This document shows, in pieces, positions 4,015 to 15,277 of a DNA stretch of 64,000 bases; position 1 is the stretch's first letter, and each line of letters begins with the position of its first letter. Both the position numbers and the translations under genes were made by a program. The DNA lies in contig JBNRMN010000067.1 in NCBI GenBank assembly GCA_050309605.1, positions 148,136-212,135 on the forward strand, given 5' to 3'. Below the pieces are notes generated by a model. The model was not told where the DNA came from. It did no database searches and was given only the letters and a program-made list of their open reading frames with translations. The DNA is from Anaerohalosphaeraceae bacterium (GTDB lineage: Bacteria > Planctomycetota > Phycisphaerae > Sedimentisphaerales > Anaerohalosphaeraceae).

Positions 4015-5067
4015 TTAGATTATCAGCATCGCATCGCCGTAGGAATAGAAGCGGTATCGTTGCGCGACCGCGTGGCGATAGGCGCCCAGCACCGTGTCCA
4101 ACCCGGCAAACGCCGCCGCCAGCGCCAGCAGCGTAGAGCGAGGCAGGTGAAAATTGGTCACCATTGCATCGACGATGTTGAACGTATAGCCGGGCATAAT
4201 AAACAGCCGCGTGCGTCCGGAGGCCGCCGCCAGCGTGCCGGCAGCGTCGGCAACGCTTTCAAGGGTGCGTACACTCGTCGTGCCCACGGCGATGATGCGG
4301 CCGCCGGCCCGGCGTGCGGCGTTAATGGTTGCGGCCGCTTCGGGGCTGACGTGGTAAAACTCCTCGTGCATCAGATGCGCATCAAGCGTGTCAGTCTGGA
4401 CGGGGCGAAATGTGCCGATACCGACATGCAGCGTCACATAGGCCAGCCGAACGCCCGCGGCCTCAATGCGTTCAAGCAGGGGTTTATCAAAATGCAGACC
4501 CGCCGTGGGGGCCGCCACCGCGCCGGGCTGAGCGGCATAAACCGTCTGATAGCGCCGCAAGTCCTCTTGCGTTTCAGGGCCGGCGGCGGCGCGTTTGATA
4601 TAGGGCGGCAGGGGCGCAAAGCCGATCTGTTCAAGCAGGCCGTCCGGCGACTGGGTGCAGGCCGGTTCCAGTCGCCACAGGCCGTCTTTGAGCCGTTCGG
4701 ATGCGACGGCCTCCATCGCGGGCTGACCGTCCCGATCCAGCAGGATCAGCGTATCACCCGGCCTGAGCTTGCGGGCGTTTTTGAGCAGAACCTGCCAGCG
4801 GCCGTCGGTCTCTTGCATAACGAACAACCCCTCCAGCCGCGCGCCGGTCGGTTTTTGAGCGTAAAAGCGGGCCGGCAGCACCTTGGTATTGTTCAGCACC
4901 AGACAGTCGCCCGCCCGTAAGTAGGAAGGCAGGTCGGTAAACATCCGGTCGCTCAGCGCCCCGTCGGTCCGGTTCAGCACCAGCAGCCGCGAGGCCCCGC
5001 GTTTGTCGGCCGGCTTTTGGGCGATCAGCTCATCCGGCAGCGTGTAATTCAGCAATTCGGTTTTCAT
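4015..5067 (-). CDS. queA: tRNA preQ1(34) S-adenosylmethionine ribosyltransferase-isomerase
   Basis: PLPPYI, YQTVYA, GAVAAPTAGLHF, VGTTSVRTLE, TNFHLPRSTL, YRFYSYGDAMLI. Confidence 0.97.
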   Translation of the reverse strand: MKTELLNYTLPDELIAQKPADKRGASRLLVLNRTDGALSDRMFTDLPSYLRAGDCLVLNNTKVLPARFYAQKPTGARLEGLFVMQETDGRWQVLLKNARKLRPGDTLILLDRDGQPAMEAVASERLKDGLWRLEPACTQSPDGLLEQIGFAPLPPYIKRAAAGPETQEDLRRYQTVYAAQPGAVAAPTAGLHFDKPLLERIEAAGVRLAYVTLHVGIGTFRPVQTDTLDAHLMHEEFYHVSPEAAATINAARRAGGRIIAVGTTSVRTLESVADAAGTLAAASGRTRLFIMPGYTFNIVDAMVTNFHLPRSTLLALAAAFAGLDTVLGAYRHAVAQRYRFYSYGDAMLII

Positions 5068-5177
5068 GGCCGCAAAGCGTATCCTAAACAGAGTGAGTTT
5101 TCAAGTTAATCGAGCCGCCAAAAACTCCGATAAAGCCCGAATGGACAAGACAACATTGATTTCGGAGTGATGGATAT

Positions 5178-5393
5178 ATGTTGATGGATGTAGATTTTGA
5201 GACGGCCTGTGCGAAAGTCACGGCGATGAGTAAATCCGAGGTGACCTGGCAACTGCTTCATTTTAACGGTCCGCTTCATTTGGATTTTACCGCCGAGTAC
5301 CTCAATACGCTGGATGTGGACAAACTCCGTCATATCCTTCTGGCCGCCCTGATTACGTCCCGCCGAAAGGAAATCAGCTGCCCAAGAAATTGA
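5178..5393 (+). CDS. Small hypothetical protein
   Basis: 71-aa ORF with host-like codon usage, GGAG upstream, divergent from queA. Confidence 0.65.
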   Translation: MLMDVDFETACAKVTAMSKSEVTWQLLHFNGPLHLDFTAEYLNTLDVDKLRHILLAALITSRRKEISCPRN

Positions 5394-5419
5394 ACCTTTA
5401 ACTTAAAGGTTTTAAGAAG

Positions 5420-5674
5420 AGGTATTATGACCTAAAAAAACTTGAAGTTCTTGACCATTTTAAGGTGTGTGTGCAATTTGAGGACGGCACATCCGGAGAA
5501 GTGGATTTGGGCGAAATCATTCACGGCGGCGGTGTTTTTGAGGCACTCAAAGATCGTCGGCTTTTTGAGCAGGCTTATATCGACCCTGATTGGAAAGTAC
5601 TTTGCTGGCCGGGCGAGATTGATATTGCTCCGGAAACGCTTTATGAATGTTTGAATGCTTCAAAGAAGACTTAA
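5420..5674 (+). pseudogene. DUF2442-family antitoxin-like protein, start codon apparently lost
   Basis: Reads (R)YYDLKKLEVLDHFKVCVQFEDGTSGEVDL...WPGEIDIAPETLYE; the codon where Met is expected (5420) is AGG. Confidence 0.6.
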
Positions 5675-5711
5675 AAACCCTTTTTTGTCCCCTTTTCTTA
5701 TTTCTGCGCAA

Positions 5712-5849
5712 TAAAAAAGGGCCGGATTCGAGGGGTCCGGCCCTTGCTGAGATGCAAATCGTATTTTTAATATATCAACAGGTATAACCTACATCTCAGC
5801 ACCGAAGAAACACATAGAGCTATAAGAAGAAAAAGAGCAATTATTTCAC
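5712..5849 (-). ncRNA. Candidate small RNA (about 137 nt)
   Basis: Own promoter, GCTGAGATG/CATCTCAGC stem (5800-5746), intrinsic terminator, no convincing ORF. Confidence 0.5.
5713..5745 (-). terminator. Rho-independent terminator
   Basis: AAGGGCCGGA-loop-TCCGGCCC followed by T6 on the minus strand. Confidence 0.8.
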
Positions 5850-5854
5850 TCTTG

Positions 5855-5882
5855 ATTATACGCGAAATATCGGTCGATTCAA
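5855..5882 (-). promoter_or_regulatory. Sigma-70 promoter with upstream A/T tracts
   Basis: TTGAAT-16-TATAAT on the minus strand; A/T tracts at 5885-5952. Confidence 0.6.
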
Positions 5883-6004
5883 GCAAAAAGTTGAAACTTT
5901 TTTCGATTTTTCCAAAAAATACTTGTTTTCAGCACAAAAAACACGGTTTTTTTCATTTAAGCTCCGACGGATTTTGCGTTTCCTTCGATGGCCGCCCGAT
6001 GATT

Positions 6005-6928
6005 TCAGGCGAATAGGGCCTCGACAAAGCCGTCCGGATCAAATTCGGCGATATCGTCGGGGGTTTCTCCCAATCCGACAAACTTGACCGGAATATCGAG
6101 CATATCTTTAATGGCGATGACGATCCCGCCACGAGCGGTACCGTCGAGCTTGGCCAGAAAGATGCCGGTAACCCGGATCGACTCGGTAAAGATTTTGGCC
6201 TGCATAATGGCGTTCTGTCCGGTGGTCGCGTCGATGACCAGCAGCACTTCATGAGGGGCGCCGGGGATTTGTTTGGCCACGACGCTGCGGATTTTGCTCA
6301 GCTCTTCCATCAGGTGTTTTTGGGTATGCAGCCGACCGGCTGTATCGACAATCAGGAAATCCGCCCCGCGCGACACGGCCGCCTGACAGGCGTCATAAGC
6401 GACCGCGGCCGGGTCGGCGCCGGATTTGTGTTTGACAATCTGCACGCCCGTGCGTTCGGCCCAGATGCTCAATTGCTCGACCGCCGCCGCTCGAAAGGTA
6501 TCGCAGGCCGCGACGATGACGGATTTGCCATTGCCGCGCAGATTGGCGGCCAGTTTGGCGATACTGGTGGTCTTGCCGGAGCCGTTGATGCCGGCGACCA
6601 GAATCACCGTCGGGCCGGACGGCGCGATGTTGAGCTGACGGTCGCGGTCGGGCCAGTACGATTTCATCCGGGTCTTCAGGAACGGAATGATGTCGTCGCT
6701 TTGCGTGATCTGACCGGCTTTCCAGGCTGAGCGCAGGTCGTCGATCAGCCGCTCGGTGGTCTCCACGCCGATGTCGTCGCTGATCAGCGTTGCCTCCAGG
6801 TCGTCCAGTAATTCATTGTCAATCCTTCGTCCCATCGGCAGCACCGCCGCCAGACTGGACGAAATCCGTGAGCGCGTCTTGCTCAGGTGGTCTTTCAGGT
6901 ATTGGACCGTTTTCGTGAAAAAACCCAT
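6005..6928 (-). CDS. ftsY: Signal recognition particle receptor
   Basis: GINGSGKTTSIAKLA, DTFRAAAVEQL, DTAGRLHT, KLDGTARGG. Confidence 0.97.
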   Translation of the reverse strand: MGFFTKTVQYLKDHLSKTRSRISSSLAAVLPMGRRIDNELLDDLEATLISDDIGVETTERLIDDLRSAWKAGQITQSDDIIPFLKTRMKSYWPDRDRQLNIAPSGPTVILVAGINGSGKTTSIAKLAANLRGNGKSVIVAACDTFRAAAVEQLSIWAERTGVQIVKHKSGADPAAVAYDACQAAVSRGADFLIVDTAGRLHTQKHLMEELSKIRSVVAKQIPGAPHEVLLVIDATTGQNAIMQAKIFTESIRVTGIFLAKLDGTARGGIVIAIKDMLDIPVKFVGLGETPDDIAEFDPDGFVEALFA

Positions 6929-7006
6929 CGATATCTCCGCAAAATTATAGTTTGAGAAACCGGTATTCTAACGATACCGACGGATTTTTCAAGCCGTATC
7001 TGACCC

Positions 7007-7975
7007 TTACAGCGCGTTGATGATGCCCTCGGCGATGGCTGAAGCGATGCGTTCCTGATAGCCGCCGTCCAGGAGCATCGCCGCTTCGTTGGGGTTGGAC
7101 AAAAAGCCCGTTTCGACCAGAACCGCGGGACATCGGGTTTGCACCAGCACGCGGTAATCGGCCGAGCGAAGCCCTTTACTGGGGATGCCGATGTGGGACA
7201 GGGTGTTCTCAAGGCTTCGTCCGACTTGCCGGGATGTGTTGCTGGCCGAGCGTGCGACATAGACGGTAAATCCCTGATGCACGCGGTCGTTGTGTGAGTC
7301 GGCGTGGATGCTGACGAATAAATCGGCGTCGGCGCGGTTGGCAATGGCCGCCCGTTCTTCCAGTTCAACAAAGGTATCGTCGCGGCGGGTCATAATGACC
7401 TCCACGCCGCGGCGCTGGAGGATTGAGGCCAATCGCCGAGAAATCTGCAAGACAATGTCTTTTTCGTGGTGTCCCAAATAGCTGATGGCGCCCGGGTCTT
7501 TGCCGCCGTGGCCGGGGTCAATCACAACCCGTCCAATGTTGGTACGGGGCGTCCAAGGGGTTGGTGACGGCGTCGGCGTCGGTGTCCAGGTGCTTTGGCC
7601 GGACTGAAGATAGGGGCGAATCTGCGACAACAGGATTTCAGAGACATAGTAGGTCCCGTTGACATCCACCACCGGTCCGACCGAGGCGACCGAGGAGCCG
7701 TTGACATACACCTTCCCATTGTCGTACATAAACAGCAAAACACGGTTGGATGCGTTTTTCAGTTCATAATAGGGATTGCCCGCCGTAGTGACCGACAACC
7801 CCAGTCGGCTGCCCAGATCGTTTACCGAGAGCATATATGACGGCGGGGTGCTGCTCTTTCTGATGGCCGGGCCGCCGGACGTTTGCGTTGGTTCCTGACA
7901 GCCGGCCAGGGCAATTGCCAAAACAGCCCACCCGACACAGCCGATCAACCGGTTCAATGGAATTTTATTGACCAC
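7007..7975 (-). CDS. N-acetylmuramoyl-L-alanine amidase (Amidase_3), lipoprotein
   Basis: Lipobox LAGC; VVIDPGHGGKDPGA, FVSIHAD, PAVLVETGFLSN; Pro/Thr linker. Confidence 0.92.
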   Translation of the reverse strand: MVNKIPLNRLIGCVGWAVLAIALAGCQEPTQTSGGPAIRKSSTPPSYMLSVNDLGSRLGLSVTTAGNPYYELKNASNRVLLFMYDNGKVYVNGSSVASVGPVVDVNGTYYVSEILLSQIRPYLQSGQSTWTPTPTPSPTPWTPRTNIGRVVIDPGHGGKDPGAISYLGHHEKDIVLQISRRLASILQRRGVEVIMTRRDDTFVELEERAAIANRADADLFVSIHADSHNDRVHQGFTVYVARSASNTSRQVGRSLENTLSHIGIPSKGLRSADYRVLVQTRCPAVLVETGFLSNPNEAAMLLDGGYQERIASAIAEGIINAL

Positions 7976-8190
7976 AAAAAACCTCTTAAAATTTGCAGAA
8001 TTCTTATGCCATCCCCAAGCAGGCCGTATTCAATGATGTCAATGGACGATTTTCTTTGCATCGTCAAAACACAAGATGATTCTTTAAGTTTCCGCGTGTT
8101 TTATCTGAAATCAATCGGCCTTGCAAGCGAAAAACGCCGGAAGGAGCCTTTGTAGAACACACGCAAAGACAGGTGTTATATGTCCGAATT

Positions 8191-8904
8191 TCAGAAACGT
8201 CGTATCAAAGACCATCCGCCTGCCAACAGGAGCACCAGCGTCGTCGGCTCCGGCACAACGTGGAACTGAAACACCGCCTGGTGGGTCAGCCGATCGCCTT
8301 CGGCTGACAGCGCCGATGCTTCAAAGGTAATCCAGTAGTTGCCGGGCTGCGAAAAGGCAAGGTTGTAATGGCTGTGGGCGCCGGCCGGGACGGTTACTCG
8401 ATCGTCGGCTAAGATACCGTCGCTGTCGGCCATAAAAACCACAGGCAATCCGAAACTGACTTTATACACGCTAAAATATCCGGGGCCATCGACTGCTATT
8501 AACGTAAGATCAAGTTGGTCGTTCAGGAAGATGCCCGTATCCACCTCTTCGGCCCCGATGCCGACAAACGGCGAGGCGAAGGTTTCCGCGTCGGTTCGAC
8601 TTTGCGGCAGACGCCACGTGTCATCGCCGGCCGCATTGCCCAAAAAATCCCATTCGGCACCCGCAGGGCGCGCAAAAACAGTGGAATTCGGCACAACGAT
8701 GATTATCTCGTCGGGTTCGTATTCGGCATCGTGCGACAGGGCGAGGCCGTTGATGGTCGCTCCGGAATGAGCGTGCAGGTGCAATTCGAGAGCGTCGTGT
8801 TCACCCAGCCCGATATCCGCGTGGCCGGCGGTATATTCAACGTGTGCATCAACCGAACCAAGAAATAACGCCGTCATAGTGAGCATCAAAACACCGGTTT
8901 TCAT
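8191..8904 (-). CDS. PEP-CTERM surface protein with choice-of-anchor M (TIGR03769-like) domain
   Basis: Signal peptide; GHADIG, LHLHAH, WRLPQ, HSHYNLAFSQPGNY; C-terminal VPEP-hydrophobic-RR. Confidence 0.8.
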   Translation of the reverse strand: MKTGVLMLTMTALFLGSVDAHVEYTAGHADIGLGEHDALELHLHAHSGATINGLALSHDAEYEPDEIIIVVPNSTVFARPAGAEWDFLGNAAGDDTWRLPQSRTDAETFASPFVGIGAEEVDTGIFLNDQLDLTLIAVDGPGYFSVYKVSFGLPVVFMADSDGILADDRVTVPAGAHSHYNLAFSQPGNYWITFEASALSAEGDRLTHQAVFQFHVVPEPTTLVLLLAGGWSLIRRF

Positions 8905-8957
8905 TGAAGGGGTTCCTTTCTATCGAGAGAGTTTGTTTGTTCATAGAGTATATTGGA

Positions 8958-9899
8958 TTACGGACATTCGGATTCAAACGGAGTGCCGCACAGCAGCCAC
9001 TGCGTTGCCAATTCGCACAGATCGTCCATCGTGACCTGTCCGGATTCGGTGATGTCGGCCCGGCCGCAGTCCGGCTGCCCGGCACAGGCGTCGCGCAGCC
9101 AGTGTGCGGCAAGCAAGGCAAAGTCGGCCCAATCGACCCTGCAATTACCGTTGATATCCGCCGTCAGCGCCGCATCGCAGCGGACATACGTTGAGATCTG
9201 AAGTTCCACCTCATACCGCCCCGGACGGGTAAACGCCCAACTGTTATGCGCGTGTTGACCGGCGGGAATGTAAAATACGTCCGACTCGGTGATACCGCCG
9301 TCGAAGGTGGAAAAGAACACCGTCGGCGCTGTACCGGCCTCCTGCCACATTGCGATATGGCCGTCTTTGGGACCGCGGACTTCGACAAGATGGACGCGCA
9401 GCCAGCGAGCGGGAGTGTTTGCGCTGCGAGTCGGATCATTCGGATCCCACAGACAAAGGGCGTTGCGTTCGTCGGCGGTCATATCCTGCGAGTCAAATCC
9501 CGGCGCCGGCGGCCGTTCCTGATCGTAGTGCCAGAAGGTTTCTCCCGGTACGGCGCCGATGAAGGCAAACGCCGGCGGCACGGCGCCCTGAAAAGCGAAC
9601 CGATGTTCGGTCCCCAGCGCGAAGTATGCCTGCTCGGCTTCGATGCGGGTATCGGTCGCCGGGCGGTCGGTCTTGATGTGCACATCCCATCCGGAAAAAC
9701 GCAGCGGGATTTCGATGTCCGTATGTGCCGCCGGTATCATCTGCGCCGCGTTCGGGTCGGACGGCGATGTTTCCACGCCGAAGTGCAGCGTGACGACAGG
9801 GCTTTGGCTCAGGACACAGTAATCGCCATAGACGGCCGCATTGCCATATAACGCAACGCACAAACAGGACACACGGACAAAAAAGTTCAGCGGTTTCAT
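8958..9899 (-). CDS. Secreted choice-of-anchor M (TIGR03769-like) protein with C-terminal dockerin-like domain
   Basis: Start at MKPLN (9899); HTDI, HAHNSWAFTRPGRY; paired ADINGNCRVDWADF / ADITESGQVTMDDL repeats. Confidence 0.75.
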   Translation of the reverse strand: MKPLNFFVRVSCLCVALYGNAAVYGDYCVLSQSPVVTLHFGVETSPSDPNAAQMIPAAHTDIEIPLRFSGWDVHIKTDRPATDTRIEAEQAYFALGTEHRFAFQGAVPPAFAFIGAVPGETFWHYDQERPPAPGFDSQDMTADERNALCLWDPNDPTRSANTPARWLRVHLVEVRGPKDGHIAMWQEAGTAPTVFFSTFDGGITESDVFYIPAGQHAHNSWAFTRPGRYEVELQISTYVRCDAALTADINGNCRVDWADFALLAAHWLRDACAGQPDCGRADITESGQVTMDDLCELATQWLLCGTPFESECP

Positions 9900-9912
9900 G
9901 GAATCTGTTCCT

Positions 9913-10668
9913 CTATCGGCTTGGTTTTGCAAAATTGAAATTGCGGTCAGACATGTCTTTGACGGCTTCGGCGGTGATGACCTCGGTGCGGGTATCGGCG
10001 TACAGAAACAGCGTAGAGCCGCGGGTGTTGTCTTCGTTGGGGCTGCCGGTTCGATAGCGGTCCGGCTGGATGTCGGCACGTATGGCGGTCCATCGCTGCT
10101 CGGCTTCGTCGGATACGAACCAACTGCGCGAGTGGGTATGATCCGCCCCTGCGTCAATCGCGTTCCAGCGGTCGGCGGCGACAAAGACGGTTATTGCGGT
10201 GTCTTTGCGCCGAAGACGATGGAGGTTATGAAACGATTCGTCGGCGACAAGCTGACCGAATCGATACCACGGCGTCATATAGTCATTCATAATATAGCTG
10301 GTGGTGTTGTTTTCAAGCCGTTCTTTGCCCTGCGGATCGGCCGGGCAAATACGGATTTGATCGACATTGGACAGATACGGCGACAGGGTGTAAATCCAGG
10401 TCTGCCGCACATCGGAGACGGTATGAGTGGTCAGCGGAAAATCTCCTTCATAGTCGTCGGCGTAAAGCGTCATCGCGATGCCGATCTGCCGCAGATTGCT
10501 CATTGACACAAGGCGTTTGGCCGTTGTTCGCGCAGTGCGCAGGCCGGGCATAACGATGGCCAGCAGCATCGCAACAATCGCAATCACCACCAGCAATTCA
10601 ATCAGGGTAAACCCTTTGGAAGGAATTGTCGTACGCATGAGACCTGCTTTCTTTGTGGACAGACGCAT
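9913..10668 (-). CDS. Prepilin-type N-terminal cleavage/methylation protein (DUF1559-like)
   Basis: KGFTLIELLVVIAIVAMLLAIVMPGL, SNLRQIG, ICPAD, C-terminal FLYAD; DHTHS motif; alternative start 10638. Confidence 0.88.
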   Translation of the reverse strand: MRLSTKKAGLMRTTIPSKGFTLIELLVVIAIVAMLLAIVMPGLRTARTTAKRLVSMSNLRQIGIAMTLYADDYEGDFPLTTHTVSDVRQTWIYTLSPYLSNVDQIRICPADPQGKERLENNTTSYIMNDYMTPWYRFGQLVADESFHNLHRLRRKDTAITVFVAADRWNAIDAGADHTHSRSWFVSDEAEQRWTAIRADIQPDRYRTGSPNEDNTRGSTLFLYADTRTEVITAEAVKDMSDRNFNFAKPSR

Positions 10669-10722
10669 GGTCTGAAAACAAGAATGTCCGTAATCCGTAA
10701 AACGAACAGATCGATTGTTGGA

Positions 10723-11079
10723 TTAGGCGACAGGCGGCGCGCGGGCAATCGCGGCGTGCAAGAAAGCGGTGCGGACTGAAAAAGACCGGCAAGCAGCCTG
10801 ACCCCCTTGCCCTTCGTCGATTAAACAAATCGGCTGCGGCAGGGAGGAAAAACCGGTGTCAATCAGTGATTTTAAGAGATGACAGGTGCCGCACCGGGTT
10901 GGCGCATGGCTGCCGAGAGGGTCGGGTTGATCATCCTGATTGTGTCGGTCGCACTCGGCGGGCTGGATATGGCAGGCGGATAAATGCAGCGACAGCAGCA
11001 CAGAAGGGCTTGCCGTTGTCAAGCACAACAGGCTTACAAGGAGAACGAGCAGCGGGATGTTCAAAAGCCGTTTGTTCAT
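10723..11079 (-). CDS. DUF2946-like small exported protein with CxxC and C-terminal RAPP
   Basis: Hydrophobic N-terminus, H-x4-CGTCH, ends ARAPPVA; ATG 2 nt after the fur-family stop codon. Confidence 0.7.
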   Translation of the reverse strand: MNKRLLNIPLLVLLVSLLCLTTASPSVLLSLHLSACHIQPAECDRHNQDDQPDPLGSHAPTRCGTCHLLKSLIDTGFSSLPQPICLIDEGQGGQAACRSFSVRTAFLHAAIARAPPVA

Positions 11080-11081
11080 GG

Positions 11082-11501
11082 TTATTGGCACAGGGCGCAA
11101 AGTCCTTCAATTCGAATTTGCTGGCGGTGCATCGTCAGGCCGTCGGGCAGCTTGACCAGCGGGGCCTCAATGCCGATCAGGCATTCGGTGCGCCGGCAGC
11201 GCACGCAGGTAAAATGCGGGTGGCACTGGGTTGCCGTGCAATGATGCGCCGGCTCAAAATGCCATTGCCGCTGCTGCACGAACGCCTTGTGGACCAGATT
11301 GGTCTTAACCAGGCTCATCAGCGTGCGGTAAATGGTCGTCTTGTCCGGCGCATCATGGCCCAGACGTTCGGCGATTTGCTGTTGGGTTAAGGGGCAGCCG
11401 GCCTGCAGCAGGGCCGTCATCACCGCCACCCGCGGCGTGGTGATGCGCAGCCGTTTTTGTTTCAGCATGGCCACGGCCAGAGGGTCAGTGTTGTGTTTCA
11501 T
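11082..11501 (-). CDS. Fur-family transcriptional regulator (Zur-like)
   Basis: LRITTPR, DKTTIYRTL, HPHFTCVRC and GLCALC; ATGA overlap with the upstream gene. Confidence 0.9.
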   Translation of the reverse strand: MKHNTDPLAVAMLKQKRLRITTPRVAVMTALLQAGCPLTQQQIAERLGHDAPDKTTIYRTLMSLVKTNLVHKAFVQQRQWHFEPAHHCTATQCHPHFTCVRCRRTECLIGIEAPLVKLPDGLTMHRQQIRIEGLCALCQ

Positions 11502-12256
11502 GGGGCGGTCTCCTTTGGCTCTGCCGGGTCGTGCTTTCCGCATAGCACACAGCTATGGCGGCCCAAATGGACGCCGTCGGCACGGAGAAACAGCGTCGGA
11601 AACACAATATCGCTCAGACAGCACGGCAGCCAGACGGCCAAAAACAGGACAATAAACATCCCTAAAAGCAATCCAAAGCTCAACTGGTCGGGGCTGCTGA
11701 TCAGCATAAAACTGGCTGAGGCCCACGTGCTGACCAGGATATGCCCGGCGTGTGGAATTTTGGTCAATGGACGGAAATAGGCCAGTACCACGCCCAGCAA
11801 GGCGGCCGGAGTGACCAGATACCACTCTTCGATAAACCCCAGATGCAGGTGGGGTTCGTGGCCGTGATCGCAGTCCGGGCCGTGGGCATGGTCGCTGTCG
11901 TCGAGGGTGTGCAGGGCGGCATGGGTCGGAATCGCCGCCCCAAGAACCGATTGCCCCAGATACGGTAAAAGCGAGTCGCTTAATGTCGCAATGCCGATAG
12001 AGCCGACATAGCCGATCACTAAAATAACCAAAAAACTGCTTGCCTTGCGGTGGAGTTTGAACAATGCGGCGGTGACCATCGCGCTGAGCACCACGTGCAA
12101 AGGATGAAAAACCGAAAACAGCCGCAGGGCATTCTCCTTGCTGATGTCTTTAAACAGCAGCATAAATCCAATCCCCAGAGCGGCACCGAGCAGGGTAAAC
12201 GGACTATGGGCTTTCAGTTCCAGCCCGATGTGTTTGAATCGATCCCATACGCTCAT
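11498..12256 (-). CDS. Polytopic membrane protein with His-rich loop (possible metal transporter)
   Basis: Multiple hydrophobic segments; HPLH, DHAHGPDCDHGHEPHLH, PHAGH, PCCLSD; start at ATG 12256. Confidence 0.7.
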   Translation of the reverse strand: MSVWDRFKHIGLELKAHSPFTLLGAALGIGFMLLFKDISKENALRLFSVFHPLHVVLSAMVTAALFKLHRKASSFLVILVIGYVGSIGIATLSDSLLPYLGQSVLGAAIPTHAALHTLDDSDHAHGPDCDHGHEPHLHLGFIEEWYLVTPAALLGVVLAYFRPLTKIPHAGHILVSTWASASFMLISSPDQLSFGLLLGMFIVLFLAVWLPCCLSDIVFPTLFLRADGVHLGRHSCVLCGKHDPAEPKETAP

Positions 12257-12285
12257 ATCTCTGCCTGCCTGAAAAAGGGCTTCTT

Positions 12286-12304
12286 TTTGCAACTTAGTTG
12301 CAAA
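12286..12304. promoter_or_regulatory. Perfect 8-3-8 palindrome, putative Fur/Zur operator
   Basis: TTTGCAAC-TTA-GTTGCAAA just downstream of a minus-strand TTGAAA-16-TATAAA promoter (12337-12310). Confidence 0.7.
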
Positions 12305-12345
12305 TACAATTTATACTCTGATTTTGTTCATTTTCAACCACAAAA

Positions 12346-12732
12346 TTATGAATTTTGTACGGCCGTGGCGATGATTTCCACCGCCGCTCCGGCCGGCAGG
12401 GCCGCGACGGCATAGGCGGCACGGGCGGGGTAGGGCGGCTTAAAAAAATCTTTATAAAGTGCGTTTATCGCACCAAAATCATCTATATGAGTCATTAACA
12501 CCACGACTTGAACCACATCGGCCACGGCAAAGCCGGCCGCATCAAGGATGGCCTGGATGTTCTTCAGCGCCTGAGCGGCCTGAGCGGCGGTATCGGCGGA
12601 AACCAGTTTGCCGGTGGTTGGATCAAGGCCGAGCTGACCCGACAGATACAGGGTGTTCCCGACCTGAATTGCCTGAGAATAGGGGCCGATGGCCGCCGGG
12701 GCGGCGTCCGTTCGGATGGCTTTCGGGGGCAT
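12346..12732 (-). CDS. ridA: RidA/YjgF family enamine deaminase
   Basis: APAAIGPYSQA, LYLSGQLG, PYPARA, ALPAGAAVEI. Confidence 0.9.
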   Translation of the reverse strand: MPPKAIRTDAAPAAIGPYSQAIQVGNTLYLSGQLGLDPTTGKLVSADTAAQAAQALKNIQAILDAAGFAVADVVQVVVLMTHIDDFGAINALYKDFFKPPYPARAAYAVAALPAGAAVEIIATAVQNS

Positions 12733-12904
12733 TGTTATCCTTTCTTTTTGCATTGTTTGACCCGTTTTTCAATTGTTTTCGCAGATTTTGCCGCAAACAT
12801 CCACGTTCTCAGCCGCCTATTGTATCTCAAGACGGCCTGAAGGAAAGGCTTGCTCGGTCCGCGTGAGCATTGTATGATGCTACTTTTATTTGTGGGAAAC
12901 GCAA

Positions 12905-13876
12905 ATGCAGATTGCTGAATCGATTGAACAAATCAGCCAACTGCCTCGGGGTATGGCGCTGAGTATTGGCAACTTTGACGGTGTGCATCGCGGGCACCAG
13001 ACGATCATTGCCGCGGCCAAACGCGCCGCCGAGCAGCGCGGCGCGCAAACGGCGGTGATGACGTTTGATCCGCACCCGGCGGCGATATTACGGCCCGACA
13101 AGGCGCCGGGGGTGTTGACGCCTCTGCCGCAAAAGCTGCGTCTGCTCCAGGCGGCCGGGGTGGATGTCGTGATTGTGATTCGCGACAGTTTGAGTCTGCT
13201 GAATCTGTCGCCGAGCGATTTTGTTGATCGGTTCCTGATGTCGCATCTGTCGCCGTCGGTGATTGTCGAAGGGCCGAATTTTACGTTCGGCTACGGTCGC
13301 AGCGGCACAATGCAGACGCTGCGCAAACTCGGTGCCGAGCGCGGTTTTGAGGTCATCGAGGCGCCGTTTACCGAGGTGCGGCTGGGCAAAGATCGGCGTG
13401 CGGCGACCTGTTCCAGCTCGCTGATTCGCGAGATGCTCGAAAAAGGCGCTGTCTTTGAGGCCGCCCAACTGCTGAGCCGTCCGTACCGATTGGCCGGATC
13501 GGTGGTGACCGGTCGCGGCATTGGACGAACCCTTGGGTTTCCGACCGCCAATGTGCATCCGGCTGGGCAAATTCTGCCGTCCGAGGGCGTGTATGCGGGC
13601 TATGTCGTGGTCGGCGGTTCGTTTGAGGACGTGTGCTTTGGCGGTCAGCGACGCCCGGCGGCGCTGAGCATCGGACGGGCCAAGACGTTCATTACCGATT
13701 ATCCGCTGCTGCTGGAGGCGCATTTGCTGGAGGATAATGTTGAAAATCTCTACGGCCAATGGGTCGGACTGGACTTTATGGAGTGGCTGCGCAATCAGCG
13801 GCGGTTCACCTCACGGGAAGATCTGTCTGAGCAAATCGCCCAGGATTGCCGCGACGCTTTGGCGGTGCTGATATGA
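12905..13876 (+). CDS. ribF: Bifunctional riboflavin kinase/FAD synthetase
   Basis: IGNFDGVHRGH, TFDPHP, GRTLGFPTAN, LEAHLL. Confidence 0.96.
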   Translation: MQIAESIEQISQLPRGMALSIGNFDGVHRGHQTIIAAAKRAAEQRGAQTAVMTFDPHPAAILRPDKAPGVLTPLPQKLRLLQAAGVDVVIVIRDSLSLLNLSPSDFVDRFLMSHLSPSVIVEGPNFTFGYGRSGTMQTLRKLGAERGFEVIEAPFTEVRLGKDRRAATCSSSLIREMLEKGAVFEAAQLLSRPYRLAGSVVTGRGIGRTLGFPTANVHPAGQILPSEGVYAGYVVVGGSFEDVCFGGQRRPAALSIGRAKTFITDYPLLLEAHLLEDNVENLYGQWVGLDFMEWLRNQRRFTSREDLSEQIAQDCRDALAVLI

Positions 13877-14248: not shown

Positions 14249-15277
14249 ATGCCGAGCAACACGGATTATGATCAAGTGGTGAAGGTATTGATGAACGCCG
14301 AGCGTGTGCTGTTGACGACGCATCTGCGTCCGGACGGGGACGGGTGCGGGTGTATGCGGGCGTTGATGGAACATTTAACGTCCGCCGGCAAGACGGTGCA
14401 TCCGCTGGTGCTCTCGCCGCTGGCCAATTGGTACGCGGAGTTGTTTGACGGCCCGGTGCCGGTGCTGGGCAATGACGTCCGGCCCGACGACCTGCCGCGG
14501 GTTTATGGCGATTGCGATTTGATGGTGATCGTCGATACAAACAGTCTGGTTCAGCTTCCGGGGCTGGAGGCCTTTATCGCGCATAGCCGCACGGCCGGTC
14601 GCCCGAAGATATTAGTCATTGATCACCATATTACCGGCGATCATCTGGGCGATGTGGAATTGCTTGATCCGGCTGCGGCTGCGGCCGGAGAAATCGTTTA
14701 TGATTTGTTCAAGACGGTCGGGTGGGACATGACGCCGCGAATTGCCGAGGCGATTTTTGTTGCGCTGGCGACCGATACCGGCTGGTTCAAGTACGGCAAC
14801 GCCGACAGCCGCATCTTTCATACCGCCGCCGAGCTGGTCAGCATCGGCGTGCATCCCAACGAGATGTATCGACGGTTGTATCAGAGTTTTTCGCCCGCCC
14901 GGCTGGCACTGATGACACGGATGCTTGAGCACCTGGCCCTCCACGCCGACGGACGAATCGCCACCCAGTATATTCTGCGCAGGGATTTTGATGAAACAGG
15001 CGCATCCGGACCCGATACCGAAAATCTCATCGATGAATGCCAGCGGATCGGTACGGTTGAAGTGGCGGTGCTGCTGGTGGAGCTGTCCGACGGGCGGTTT
15101 CGCTGTTCGCTGCGAAGCAAAGGCGATGTGGATGTGCGGGCGATTGCCCAGGCCTATGGCGGCGGGGGTCATACGCTGGCGGCCGGGGTGACCATGGACG
15201 GGCCGCTTGATGCGGCGATGGAGCGGCTGGTGGAGGATGTCCGAGGTCAGATGGCAGAGGGCAGGTTCGGAATTTGA
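14249..15277 (+). CDS. DHH/DHHA1 phosphoesterase (NrnA-like)
   Basis: HLRPDGD, IDHH, TDTGWF, SLRS, GGGGHTLAAG. Confidence 0.93.
   Translation: MPSNTDYDQVVKVLMNAERVLLTTHLRPDGDGCGCMRALMEHLTSAGKTVHPLVLSPLANWYAELFDGPVPVLGNDVRPDDLPRVYGDCDLMVIVDTNSLVQLPGLEAFIAHSRTAGRPKILVIDHHITGDHLGDVELLDPAAAAAGEIVYDLFKTVGWDMTPRIAEAIFVALATDTGWFKYGNADSRIFHTAAELVSIGVHPNEMYRRLYQSFSPARLALMTRMLEHLALHADGRIATQYILRRDFDETGASGPDTENLIDECQRIGTVEVAVLLVELSDGRFRCSLRSKGDVDVRAIAQAYGGGGHTLAAGVTMDGPLDAAMERLVEDVRGQMAEGRFGI

Follow-up and report, generated by a model that had tools for sequence, protein, structure and literature searches.

Uptake of nickel, cobalt and zinc is poorly known in Planctomycetota, and a set of six linked genes from an anaerobic member of this phylum raises the question of which metal such a set could serve and how its parts would work together. 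The genes lie, with their upstream region, at positions 8191 to 12337 of a 64,000-nucleotide stretch of DNA (here called the window; positions 148,136 to 212,135 of contig JBNRMN010000067.1, assembly GCA_050309605.1) from an Anaerohalosphaeraceae bacterium, and code for a His-rich membrane protein, a Fur-family regulator, a small peptide, a pilin-like protein and two secreted proteins. The locus is read here as a metal-starvation uptake operon of anaerobic Phycisphaerae. Its general architecture, an uptake regulon under the control of this repressor, is highly probable, and the version in which the metal is nickel or cobalt, which is the one preferred here, is given a rough probability of 45%, the main evidence being an operator that equals the box of the nickel-dependent repressor Nur and the kinds of transporter found behind further copies of this box.

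Organization of the operon

Six minus-strand genes with short gaps and a perfect palindrome ahead of them had been described in the original prediction, and reading of the open reading frames (ORFs) and of the sequence confirms this arrangement: in operon order, an ATGA overlap is followed by gaps of 2, 54, 13 and 53 nucleotides (nt). The His and Cys motifs that had been pointed out in the surface proteins, the pilin-like protein and the product of the third gene are likewise all present in the translations. These genes, tightly linked behind one palindrome, are predicted to form an operon with the following parts.

12308..12337, minus strand: promoter-like pair TTGAAA-18-TAAATT, from a consensus scan (9 of 12 positions matching)
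12287..12303, minus strand: predicted operator, a perfect palindrome of the 8-1-8 type, also readable as 6-5-6
11498-12256, minus strand: His-rich membrane protein of 252 amino acids, with an ATG start common to its orthologs
11082-11501, minus strand: Fur-family regulator of 139 amino acids, whose own ATG overlaps the TGA of the membrane protein gene as ATGA
10723-11079, minus strand: gene 3, a predicted leader peptide of 118 amino acids with CxxC and RAPP motifs
9913-10668, minus strand: prepilin-type DUF1559 protein, more likely to start at its second ATG (10638)
8958-9899, minus strand: secreted choice-of-anchor M (CAM) protein with a dockerin-like, Cys-rich tail
8191-8904, minus strand: secreted CAM protein with a PEP-CTERM anchor

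The operator and its regulon

The palindrome, TTGCAACT-A-AGTTGCAA at 12287-12303, is a perfect 8-1-8 repeat that can also be written in 6-5-6 form as TTGCAA-CTAAG-TTGCAA, and in this form it equals the consensus tTGCaa-N5-ttGCAA published for the box of Nur from Streptomyces coelicolor, a regulator whose binding to the nikA and nikM promoters is reported to depend on nickel (PMC2691836). The exact sequence TGCAAC-N3-GTTGCA occurs once in the 3.4-Mb genome to which the window belongs (the host genome), where composition alone predicts 0.19 copies, and sites with one mismatch to the palindrome are found elsewhere in this genome at C5:16852 and C29:3537. A scan of one genome per species recovered 80 loci with the membrane protein gene, almost all of them from Phycisphaerae, Sedimentisphaerales, Anaerohalosphaeraceae and metagenome-assembled genomes labelled Pirellulales. 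The palindrome, with at most one mismatch to TGCAAC-N3-GTTGCA, lies upstream of the membrane protein gene in 61 of the 75 loci that could be evaluated, and it goes with the regulator gene, since the two occur together in 59 of these loci and are both lacking in 11, the regulator gene being alone in 3 and the operator in 2. Nearly all sites of this quality in the 969,765 bases searched (71 of 76) fall within the 420-nt upstream windows, with the consensus tTGCAACTnAGTTGCAa. On a wider scale, the 17-mer with at most one mismatch is present in 49 of 70 genomes of the host family, and the exact 15-mer in 27 of 151 genomes of the host class, a reversed-pattern control matching in 9 of those genomes. 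This conservation argues that the palindrome is a real operator, which the Fur-family regulator would bind. The idea of a metal-linked operon under Fur-family control, put forward before these comparisons, is strengthened by an operator that is conserved and co-varies with the regulator gene.

In the window, the palindrome begins 4-5 nt downstream of the -10-like hexamer, while in 43 of 64 loci (a count made without a shuffle control) a TTGCAA half-site stands 16-18 nt ahead of a TATAAT-like hexamer and would double as the -35 element, so that binding of the regulator would block it; as far as such placement can tell, both are repressor positions. A single promoter had been claimed for the operon and a -35/-10-like pair is found at 12308-12337, but promoter-like sites are not enriched in the region over shuffled sequences (4 against 2.5 +/- 1.9) and the promoter itself is therefore only plausible.

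Boxes are also found ahead of other genes, namely an OprB porin followed by CbiM-PDGLE, CbiQ and CbiO in G401/G530 and G543 and an OprB porin followed by a DsbD_2-type membrane protein in G206, G551, G552 and G554. G551 and G554 have a NikR gene divergently adjacent to the box-linked transporters, and in G401 a NikR gene is nearby; the six genomes with extra boxes belong to one genus-level group and do not count as independent cases. PF13386 we take to be the family of UreH-type nickel transporters. No Rfam family reached its gathering score in two of the transporter loci searched (L117 and L087), and no B12 riboswitch precedes the CbiMNQO genes. A further box in G403 falls inside a Peptidase_M78 gene and was taken as a chance occurrence. 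Compared across genomes, the box defines a regulon of its own, with one to three loci in each genome, whose recognisable members are all importers or porins. The NikR locus of the host genome carries no TTGCAA box, indicating that the box is not that of NikR. Two other points favour nickel: the host genome codes for the large subunit of a [NiFe]-hydrogenase and has no CbiM, and a 2009 census lists no known nickel or cobalt transporter for three Planctomycetes genomes (PMC2667541).

The regulator: nickel or zinc

The regulator scores 34.9 bits with the Fur family model PF01475 (cut-off 23.1), and a profile built from 14 orthologs matches at least 20 solved Fur-family chains. H71, E83, C88, C93, H94, H96, C99, C102 and C107 are invariant in 65 orthologs, in which both CxxC pairs expected for structural zinc are also found (C99-x-x-C102 invariant, C135-x-x-C138 in 98%). 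It is a divergent Fur-family protein, presumed to repress its own operon through the palindrome. In Nur, the Ni-site consists of His70, His72 and His126 and the M-site of His33, 86, 88 and 90 (PMC2691836); H94 and H96 of the regulator stand 5 and 3 residues ahead of the first CxxC, as H88 and H90 do in Nur, the other positions not being confidently alignable.

The same architecture could serve zinc, with a divergent Zur as regulator, a zinc importer in the membrane and zinc capture by the CAM and pilin-like proteins, an alternative that is possible, if doubtful. Several observations count in its favour and weigh against nickel. The best match of the regulator profile in the PDB is Escherichia coli Zur (4mtd; 7.4e-16, 61.6 bits), with XcZur at 54.5 bits, ScZur at 46 and Nur (3eyy) at 39, in rank 17, and a search with the single regulator sequence puts XcZur and two entries of ScZur in the top three places. 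The zinc-sensing site 2 of XcZur and EcZur is formed by H99, C110, H118 and E133 (PMC8216289), and H71, C88, C93/H94 and C107 of the regulator fall onto these positions by spacing, in a mapping that is not structural and that places the invariant C107 where Zur has its acidic ligand E133. In four sister loci (L019, L022, L027 and G590), the slot behind the leader peptide is filled by a 470-amino-acid porin-like protein, a ZnuA-family binding protein and two ABC-3 permeases, for which the best NCBIfam matches are AztC (zinc) and MntC (manganese), both far under their cut-offs. Zinc and Zur are reported to repress the 'anchored repeat' troA cluster of Corynebacterium diphtheriae as well as cmrA/cmrA2, and the Cmr proteins are described as similar to the surface-anchored protein of that ABC cluster (PMC6711530). 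The host genome offers no other candidate for a Zur, since its only other Fur-family gene (G000:C2:46064-47136; 1432-2504 of locus L083) lies directly before a rubrerythrin gene and has PerR as best NCBIfam match (103 bits, under the cut-off); a PerR-like gene ahead of a rubrerythrin gene is an arrangement typical of anaerobes. Two further points count against nickel only: a NikR is already present in this genome, so that the regulator would be a second nickel sensor, and the two studied relatives of the leader peptide, discussed below, sense copper.

It is the operator and its regulon that speak for nickel over zinc. Zur boxes of the 7-1-7 type are known, and the only conserved palindrome of these loci is the 6-5-6 TTGCAA box, identical to that of Nur and different from the Zur sites printed for Caulobacter. 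The original prediction had called the system Zur-controlled and its metal probably zinc; the regulator sequence is indeed closest to E. coli Zur, but the Nur-type operator and the extra boxes ahead of Cbi- and DsbD_2-type transporters with OprB porins, some of them beside NikR, leave that assignment short of established. We know of no zinc role for CbiMNQO- or DsbD_2-type transporters accompanied by OprB porins. Moreover, neither a zinc-independent ribosomal paralog nor a COG0523 protein is found among the about 20 annotated of the 30 commonest neighbour clusters at the 80 loci, and the ZIP transporter of the host genome lies elsewhere and has no box. The ZnuA-type modules themselves may not mean zinc in this lineage, because the only ZnuA-family ATP-binding cassette (ABC) transporter of the host genome adjoins NikR.

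The membrane protein

The first product of the operon has about six or seven helices and a variable, His-rich central loop. H17, H51, H54, H69, D94, H138, E143, H169, H172, C212, C213, D216 and C236 are invariant in 20 diverse sequences, and the cysteines include a CC pair within a helix and, at the C-terminus, a CxxC. Homologs at E<=1e-3 number more than 6,638, all unnamed, and the family comprises 435 representative clusters at 50% identity. It matches no Pfam or NCBIfam family; at E<=5, the Pfam models gave no consistent family for 20 members (a weak DUF4257 match appears in 15 of them), no match to NicO/RcnA was obtained for the protein even at an E value of 5, and the ESM Atlas returned only unnamed clusters. 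A structural model with a predicted local distance difference test (pLDDT) of 72 has TRIC channels as best VIA-align matches (Z 10.4 and 9.9, the next row being at 6.5), a likeness to be taken as a lead only, since these Z values are below the caution line of the tool for helical proteins. Foldseek found no match in the PDB at E<=1e-3, either for this model or for that of the CAM protein with the PEP-CTERM anchor. Five longer proteins in which the membrane protein appears fused to mixed partners are probably gene-calling artefacts.

Of the 80 loci, 65 have a Fur-like gene directly downstream of the membrane protein gene and in the same orientation; when only loci with 3 kb or more of downstream sequence are counted, the figure is 50 of 60. 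The two genes form the conserved core of the system. The original prediction had the locus lacking a TonB-dependent receptor or ABC transporter; it is nevertheless not without a likely transporter, the conserved partner of the regulator being this membrane protein, which is likely, judging from its sequence, an inner-membrane metal permease and a candidate for an undescribed family.

A membrane protein gene of the DsbD_TM/DsbD_2 type is found directly upstream of, and divergent from, the membrane protein gene in 16 of the 80 loci (for instance at 6986-7735, minus strand, of locus L017). It would share the operator region and is not present in the window. The best NCBIfam match of its product is the ArsG family, at 78 bits, under the cut-off.

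The pilin-like and CAM surface proteins

The pilin-like protein carries an N_methyl motif (33.6 bits, cut-off 21.2) and a DUF1559 match (26 bits, cut-off 23.3) limited to profile positions 2-60, and scores 38.7 with GspG, for which 88.85 is needed; the Fur and DUF1559 models, named at the outset as a check on the locus, are thus both over their cut-offs. When 23 orthologs are aligned, a start at the second ATG (10638) is favoured. The protein contains a DHTHS motif in which D176, H177 and H179 are kept in 87% of the 23 module-linked orthologs, and counted from the second ATG, H72, D166, H167 and H169 are invariant in 7 sequences. Large expansions of DUF1559 are known in Planctomycetia; in the host genome there are only three matches.

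Both secreted proteins match choice-of-anchor M (NF038134) over the cut-off of 55 bits, the one with PEP-CTERM at 98.2 and the dockerin-tailed one at 71. They had been described as paralogs of TIGR03769 type; the choice-of-anchor M match bears out their kinship, but the TIGR03769 scores themselves, 28.5 and 30.6 bits, are just under the cut-off of 30.9, and the proteins are therefore termed TIGR03769-related and not members. As for the tails, the PEP-CTERM signal reaches 20.8 bits with TIGR02595 (cut-off 16) in a genome with exosortase, its Pfam counterpart PF07589 staying below (17.4 against 20.7), but Dockerin_1 (PF00404) gives 19.4 against 22.9 and the other tail is for this reason named dockerin-like only. 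The machinery for both kinds of anchor is present in the host genome, as two exosortase genes and a prepilin peptidase. The PEP-CTERM protein has the motifs GHADIG and AHSHYNLAFSQPGNY, with H177 invariant and H28, D30 and H179 nearly invariant in 64 sequences, and the dockerin-tailed protein has AHTDIE and QHAHNSWAFTRPGRY, with H59, D61, H216 and H218 invariant in 7 sequences. The model of the PEP-CTERM protein is a beta-sandwich of high confidence (pLDDT 93.8). Its best VIA-align match has a Z of 6.6 and many cupredoxin-like and immunoglobulin-like rows lie at Z 5-6, values within the noise of the tool (typical best Z 7-8), and consequently no fold family is claimed.

A complex was predicted from residues 30-313 of the dockerin-tailed CAM protein and residues 33-241, the soluble part, of the pilin-like protein. 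It reached an interface score (ipSAE) of 0.67 (0.65, 0.67 and 0.67 in the separate runs) against 0.00 for the best of three controls. Of 157 solved complexes, 116 attain the mark used for this score, as do 2 of 215 mismatched pairs, counts that hold only roughly here because the alignments were self-supplied and had 7 rows. Contacts agree between runs by at least 91%, the partners have a pLDDT of at least 88, and the predicted interface involves CAM residues 57-59 and 214-218, including H59, H216 and H218, together with H72 and H169 of the pilin-like protein. By the confidence of the model itself, both His motifs of the CAM protein would lie on one face and meet the conserved histidines of the pilin-like protein, which supports the prediction that the two proteins bind each other.

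CAM proteins are rare in the phylum (10 of 401 genomes searched) and the host genome has only these two copies. In two distant Planctomycetota, a CAM gene stands beside a gene for a protein of 860-880 amino acids with a spermine/spermidine synthase domain (L103:5221-7797 and L104:9089-11737).

A variable module behind a fixed core

In the related loci, the core pair is fixed within a housekeeping synteny of a DHH phosphoesterase, an FAD synthetase (RibF), the pair itself and then an Amidase_3, and the genes behind the regulator are therefore regarded as a lineage-variable insert. In the clade of the window (L003, L004, L024, L069, G395 and a second copy in G407), the leader peptide is followed by the pilin-like protein, the dockerin-tailed CAM protein and the PEP-CTERM CAM protein. 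Many loci of Sedimentisphaerales have instead the leader, a His-motif protein of about 300 amino acids, a DUF1559 pilin and a dockerin-tailed His-motif protein of about 265 amino acids, some of them with a PEP-CTERM His-motif protein ahead of the pilin. Where downstream sequence suffices (60 loci), the leader is found in 17, the pilin in 17 and both in 14. The module also occurs detached from the core: in G413 (C128) a box is followed by the leader, a PEP-CTERM His protein, the pilin and a dockerin protein with no membrane protein or regulator gene nearby, and in G407 (C95) by a second copy of the regulator and a module of pilin and His proteins, suggesting that even detached modules belong to the same regulon, since the box precedes copies that lack the membrane protein gene. 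The pilin and CAM genes are an accessory, swappable module headed by the leader peptide.

The recurrence of the pilin-like gene together with His-motif proteins in other genomes is in line with the co-occurrence that the original prediction called for. As for the proposal that a pilin and binding proteins serve as uptake device, the combination does recur, but it is accessory and is exchanged in sister lineages for the porin-like protein and ZnuA-type ABC transporter described above.

Within the host genome, a NikR gene at G000:C33:312500-317500 (4530-9422 of locus L087) is divergent from a five-gene metal operon that codes for a 344-amino-acid dockerin-tailed secreted protein, a 227-amino-acid prepilin-type protein, a ZnuA-family lipoprotein, an ABC ATPase and an ABC-3 permease. 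A front end of pilin and dockerin protein recurs, in this way, at a second metal system of the same genome.

Other secreted proteins stand beside the module pilin and fall into three families, called here A (L037, L042, L048, L051, L058, L062, L070 and L072), B (the same eight loci and L040, L043, L030 and L077) and P (L030, L043, L069, L040 and L135). They have N-terminal HxHIG-like and C-terminal HxHxxF-like motifs and dockerin or PEP-CTERM tails; in Pfam only the Dockerin_1 and PEP-CTERM tail models match them, and in NCBIfam no model is over its cut-off for the two representatives searched. Compared with CAM by hhalign, family A gives 9%, B 2% and P 96.7%, the last value coming from just 61 columns at the C-terminus, PEP-CTERM tail included, and the likeness to CAM is a motif resemblance seen by eye.

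A reduced form of the operon is found in a genome of the genus of the window (G299; 6724-8288 of locus L108), and consists of the membrane protein gene, the regulator gene and a 118-amino-acid C-terminal piece of CAM, with neither leader peptide nor pilin.

It is improbable that the pilin and CAM proteins are a metal-regulated surface feature for adhesion, sequestration or protection from metal excess instead of an uptake device, or that the membrane protein is an RcnA-like exporter. In three distant genomes of one family, though not in a fourth, the PEP-CTERM CAM gene stands divergently beside a full-length DUF1559 gene with no metal genes around, and RcnA-type exporters likewise have helices and a central His-rich loop (PMC11247825). 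Against this stand the other members of the box regulon, all of importer type or porins, the overlap of box and promoter, which as a repressor site would fit expression under scarcity, and the absence of a NicO/RcnA match in Pfam for the membrane protein.

The leader peptide and copper

Gene 3 codes for a hydrophobic N-terminus, of which the stretch LLNIPLLVLLVSLLCL reads on inspection as an export signal, followed by CGTC, 46 residues, RAPP, VA and the stop. Its DUF2946 (PF11162) score of 19.4 bits (E 0.0019) is under the cut-off of 23.7, but it shows the published hallmarks of that family, a CxxC motif followed by RAPP at the C-terminus, with 45 +/- 2 residues between them (PMC9426467). Two relatives have been studied: in CruR (Bordetella bp2923) the nascent peptide senses copper and acts through Rho-dependent termination of the downstream uptake genes (PMC9426467), and in Rhodobacter CutF copper induces stalling (bioRxiv 10.1101/2025.02.05.636593). 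Among the 9,256 ORFs from the 80 loci, CxxC-(42-48)-R[AG]PP at the protein end was matched 23 times; in 22 cases the peptide, here with the spacing CxxC-(44-46)-R[AG]PP, comes directly behind a Fur-like gene. The 33,950 ORFs of the host genome contain a single match, which is gene 3 itself. The peptide is encoded third in the window and first behind the box in the detached module of G413. The RNA between gene 3 and the pilin gene folds more stably than most shuffles (z = -2.38, with 4 of 200 as stable), which leaves masking of the ribosome-binding site undecided, and the three aligned relatives are too similar for covariation to show. From its hallmarks and distribution, gene 3 is predicted to be an exported leader peptide of the CruR/CutF type (DUF2946-like), and by analogy with the two studied relatives it would add a second, post-transcriptional layer of control. 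The CxxC and RAPP motifs had been noticed before and are confirmed; the nature of the peptide and the second layer had been missed.

A reading in which the downstream module responds to copper and the CAM proteins handle this metal draws on the response of CxxC and a C-terminal proline-rich arrest motif (RAPP in CruR) to copper in CruR and CutF (PMC9426467; bioRxiv 10.1101/2025.02.05.636593), the fit of the 46-residue spacing, the helix CC pair and C-terminal CxxC of the membrane protein, and the top structural rows of CAM, which are often cupredoxin-like (FtrB, Cupredoxin_1 and multicopper oxidases, Z 5-6.3) and include a Cu(I) chaperone at 21% identity, but it is very improbable, given that those Z values are at noise level, that ZnuA/ABC-3 genes make up the alternative modules and transporters of CbiMNQO and DsbD_2 type the extra regulon members, and that no copper-homeostasis gene is found among the annotated neighbours. 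To our knowledge, there is no Fur-family copper sensor, which also counts against copper. The leader family may not be restricted to this metal, since the CutF preprint speaks of 'metal ion homeostasis' for DUF2946 (bioRxiv 10.1101/2025.02.05.636593), and in a published Zur-regulon table of Caulobacter two DUF2946 genes are downregulated, one of them with a predicted Zur-binding sequence and adjoining the czr resistance-nodulation-division (RND) genes.

Proposed mode of action

In the nickel/cobalt reading, the regulator would bind TTGCAA-N5-TTGCAA at the promoter when metal is sufficient, as the comparative evidence suggests, and repress the whole operon, including its own gene. When metal is scarce, permease and regulator would be derepressed, the membrane protein acting as permease in the inner membrane. 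The exported leader peptide may sense periplasmic metal through its His/CxxC segment, as its studied relatives suggest, and its C-terminal RAPP arrest motif would couple this signal to the three genes behind it, turning them either on or off. In the capture module, the pilin-like protein is predicted to bind the dockerin-tailed CAM protein through a shared His-rich interface, and the metal could be passed inward through histidine sites by this pair and by the surface CAM protein with the PEP-CTERM anchor.

A more far-reaching reading is offered only tentatively. In it, metal would be acquired along a path for which no counterpart has been described: a His-lined complex of a membrane-anchored pseudopilin-like protein and surface-anchored CAM proteins would take the place of a TonB-dependent receptor or periplasmic binding protein and feed nickel or zinc to a new His/Cys-rich permease family, under the dual control of a Zur-like Fur protein that binds a Nur box and of a CruR-type arrest peptide recruited beyond copper, and the front end of pilin and dockerin-tailed protein would also serve the NikR-linked ABC transporter of the host.

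Comparison with known systems

The kinds of part that make up the system are already known, namely a Fur-family repressor, a Nur-type box, a DUF2946 leader, CAM domains and pseudopilin-like proteins. With the Nur regulon of S. coelicolor (nikABCDE, nikMNOQ and sodF), it shares a Fur-family repressor, a 6-5-6 palindrome with TTGCAA half-sites and targets that include a Cbi/NikMNQO transporter of the energy-coupling factor (ECF) type. Unlike Nur, the regulator is nearer to E. coli Zur (61.6 bits against 39 for Nur) and has a Cys-rich invariant set (C88, C93 and C107) where the Nur sites are made of His only, and it would act on one autoregulated operon with a new membrane protein, a leader and pilin/CAM genes, none of which is reported for Nur. 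With the Zur regulons of E. coli, Xanthomonas and C. diphtheriae it has in common the Fur family and the His/Cys residues at site-2 positions, and with that of C. diphtheriae also metal-repressed surface proteins of the TIGR03769/choice-of-anchor M kind, there accompanied by ZnuA/TroA-type ABC transporters. It differs from them in its operator, which is not of Zur type, in its anchors, PEP-CTERM and dockerin-like instead of sortase signals, in the lack of an ABC transporter in the window and in the addition of the pilin-like partner and the leader peptide.

Gene 3 resembles CruR and CutF in its export-like N-terminus, CxxC, 46-residue spacer and RAPP, and in its place directly ahead of uptake-type genes. 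In contrast to them, it is under the Pfam cut-off, comes third in the operon behind a Fur-family gene, has its next gene at 54 or 84 nt (162 nt in Bordetella) and is followed by no TonB-dependent transporter. The pilin-like protein shares with type II pseudopilins and DUF1559 proteins the prepilin methylation motif, the DUF1559 start and a prepilin peptidase in the genome, but GspG is far below its cut-off, only the first 60 positions of the DUF1559 profile are covered, and only this subgroup has the conserved DHxH and the face predicted to bind CAM.

In the literature searched, neither this combination of parts nor the membrane protein family, a contact between pilin and CAM or a Zur-like protein on a Nur-type box is described, and full-text searches gave no paper on the function of TIGR03769/choice-of-anchor M, DUF1559 or planctomycete Zur parts. 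The locus offers a testable candidate for a transporter family that has no Pfam model. It also places DUF1559 pilin-like proteins and choice-of-anchor M domains in a functional context for the first time, with a direct contact predicted between the two. Regulation by a DUF2946 arrest peptide, here nested in a Fur-family operon, would no longer be confined to copper or to Proteobacteria. How a Zur-like protein came to work with a Nur-type operator is a further question, one that touches on the extent to which sequence reveals the metal specificity of Fur-family proteins.

RNA features and flanking genes

Rfam finds three tRNAs only in the whole window and nothing at E<=0.1 across 7000-13500. 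A terminator scan gave 5 sites, against 6.0 +/- 2.6 in shuffled sequences, and is hence uninformative. Two sequencing runs labelled transcriptomic, and judged to be probably DNA, yield short contigs of low depth over parts of the operon and are silent on expression and co-transcription. On either side of the operon, ORFs at 7007-7975, 12890-13876 and 14249-15277 occupy positions that match those of the housekeeping neighbours of the 80 related loci, Amidase_3 downstream and the RibF and DHH-family genes upstream, a synteny in which the operon stands out as inserted among housekeeping genes, the housekeeping names coming from Pfam matches of orthologs in the other loci and not of the window ORFs themselves.

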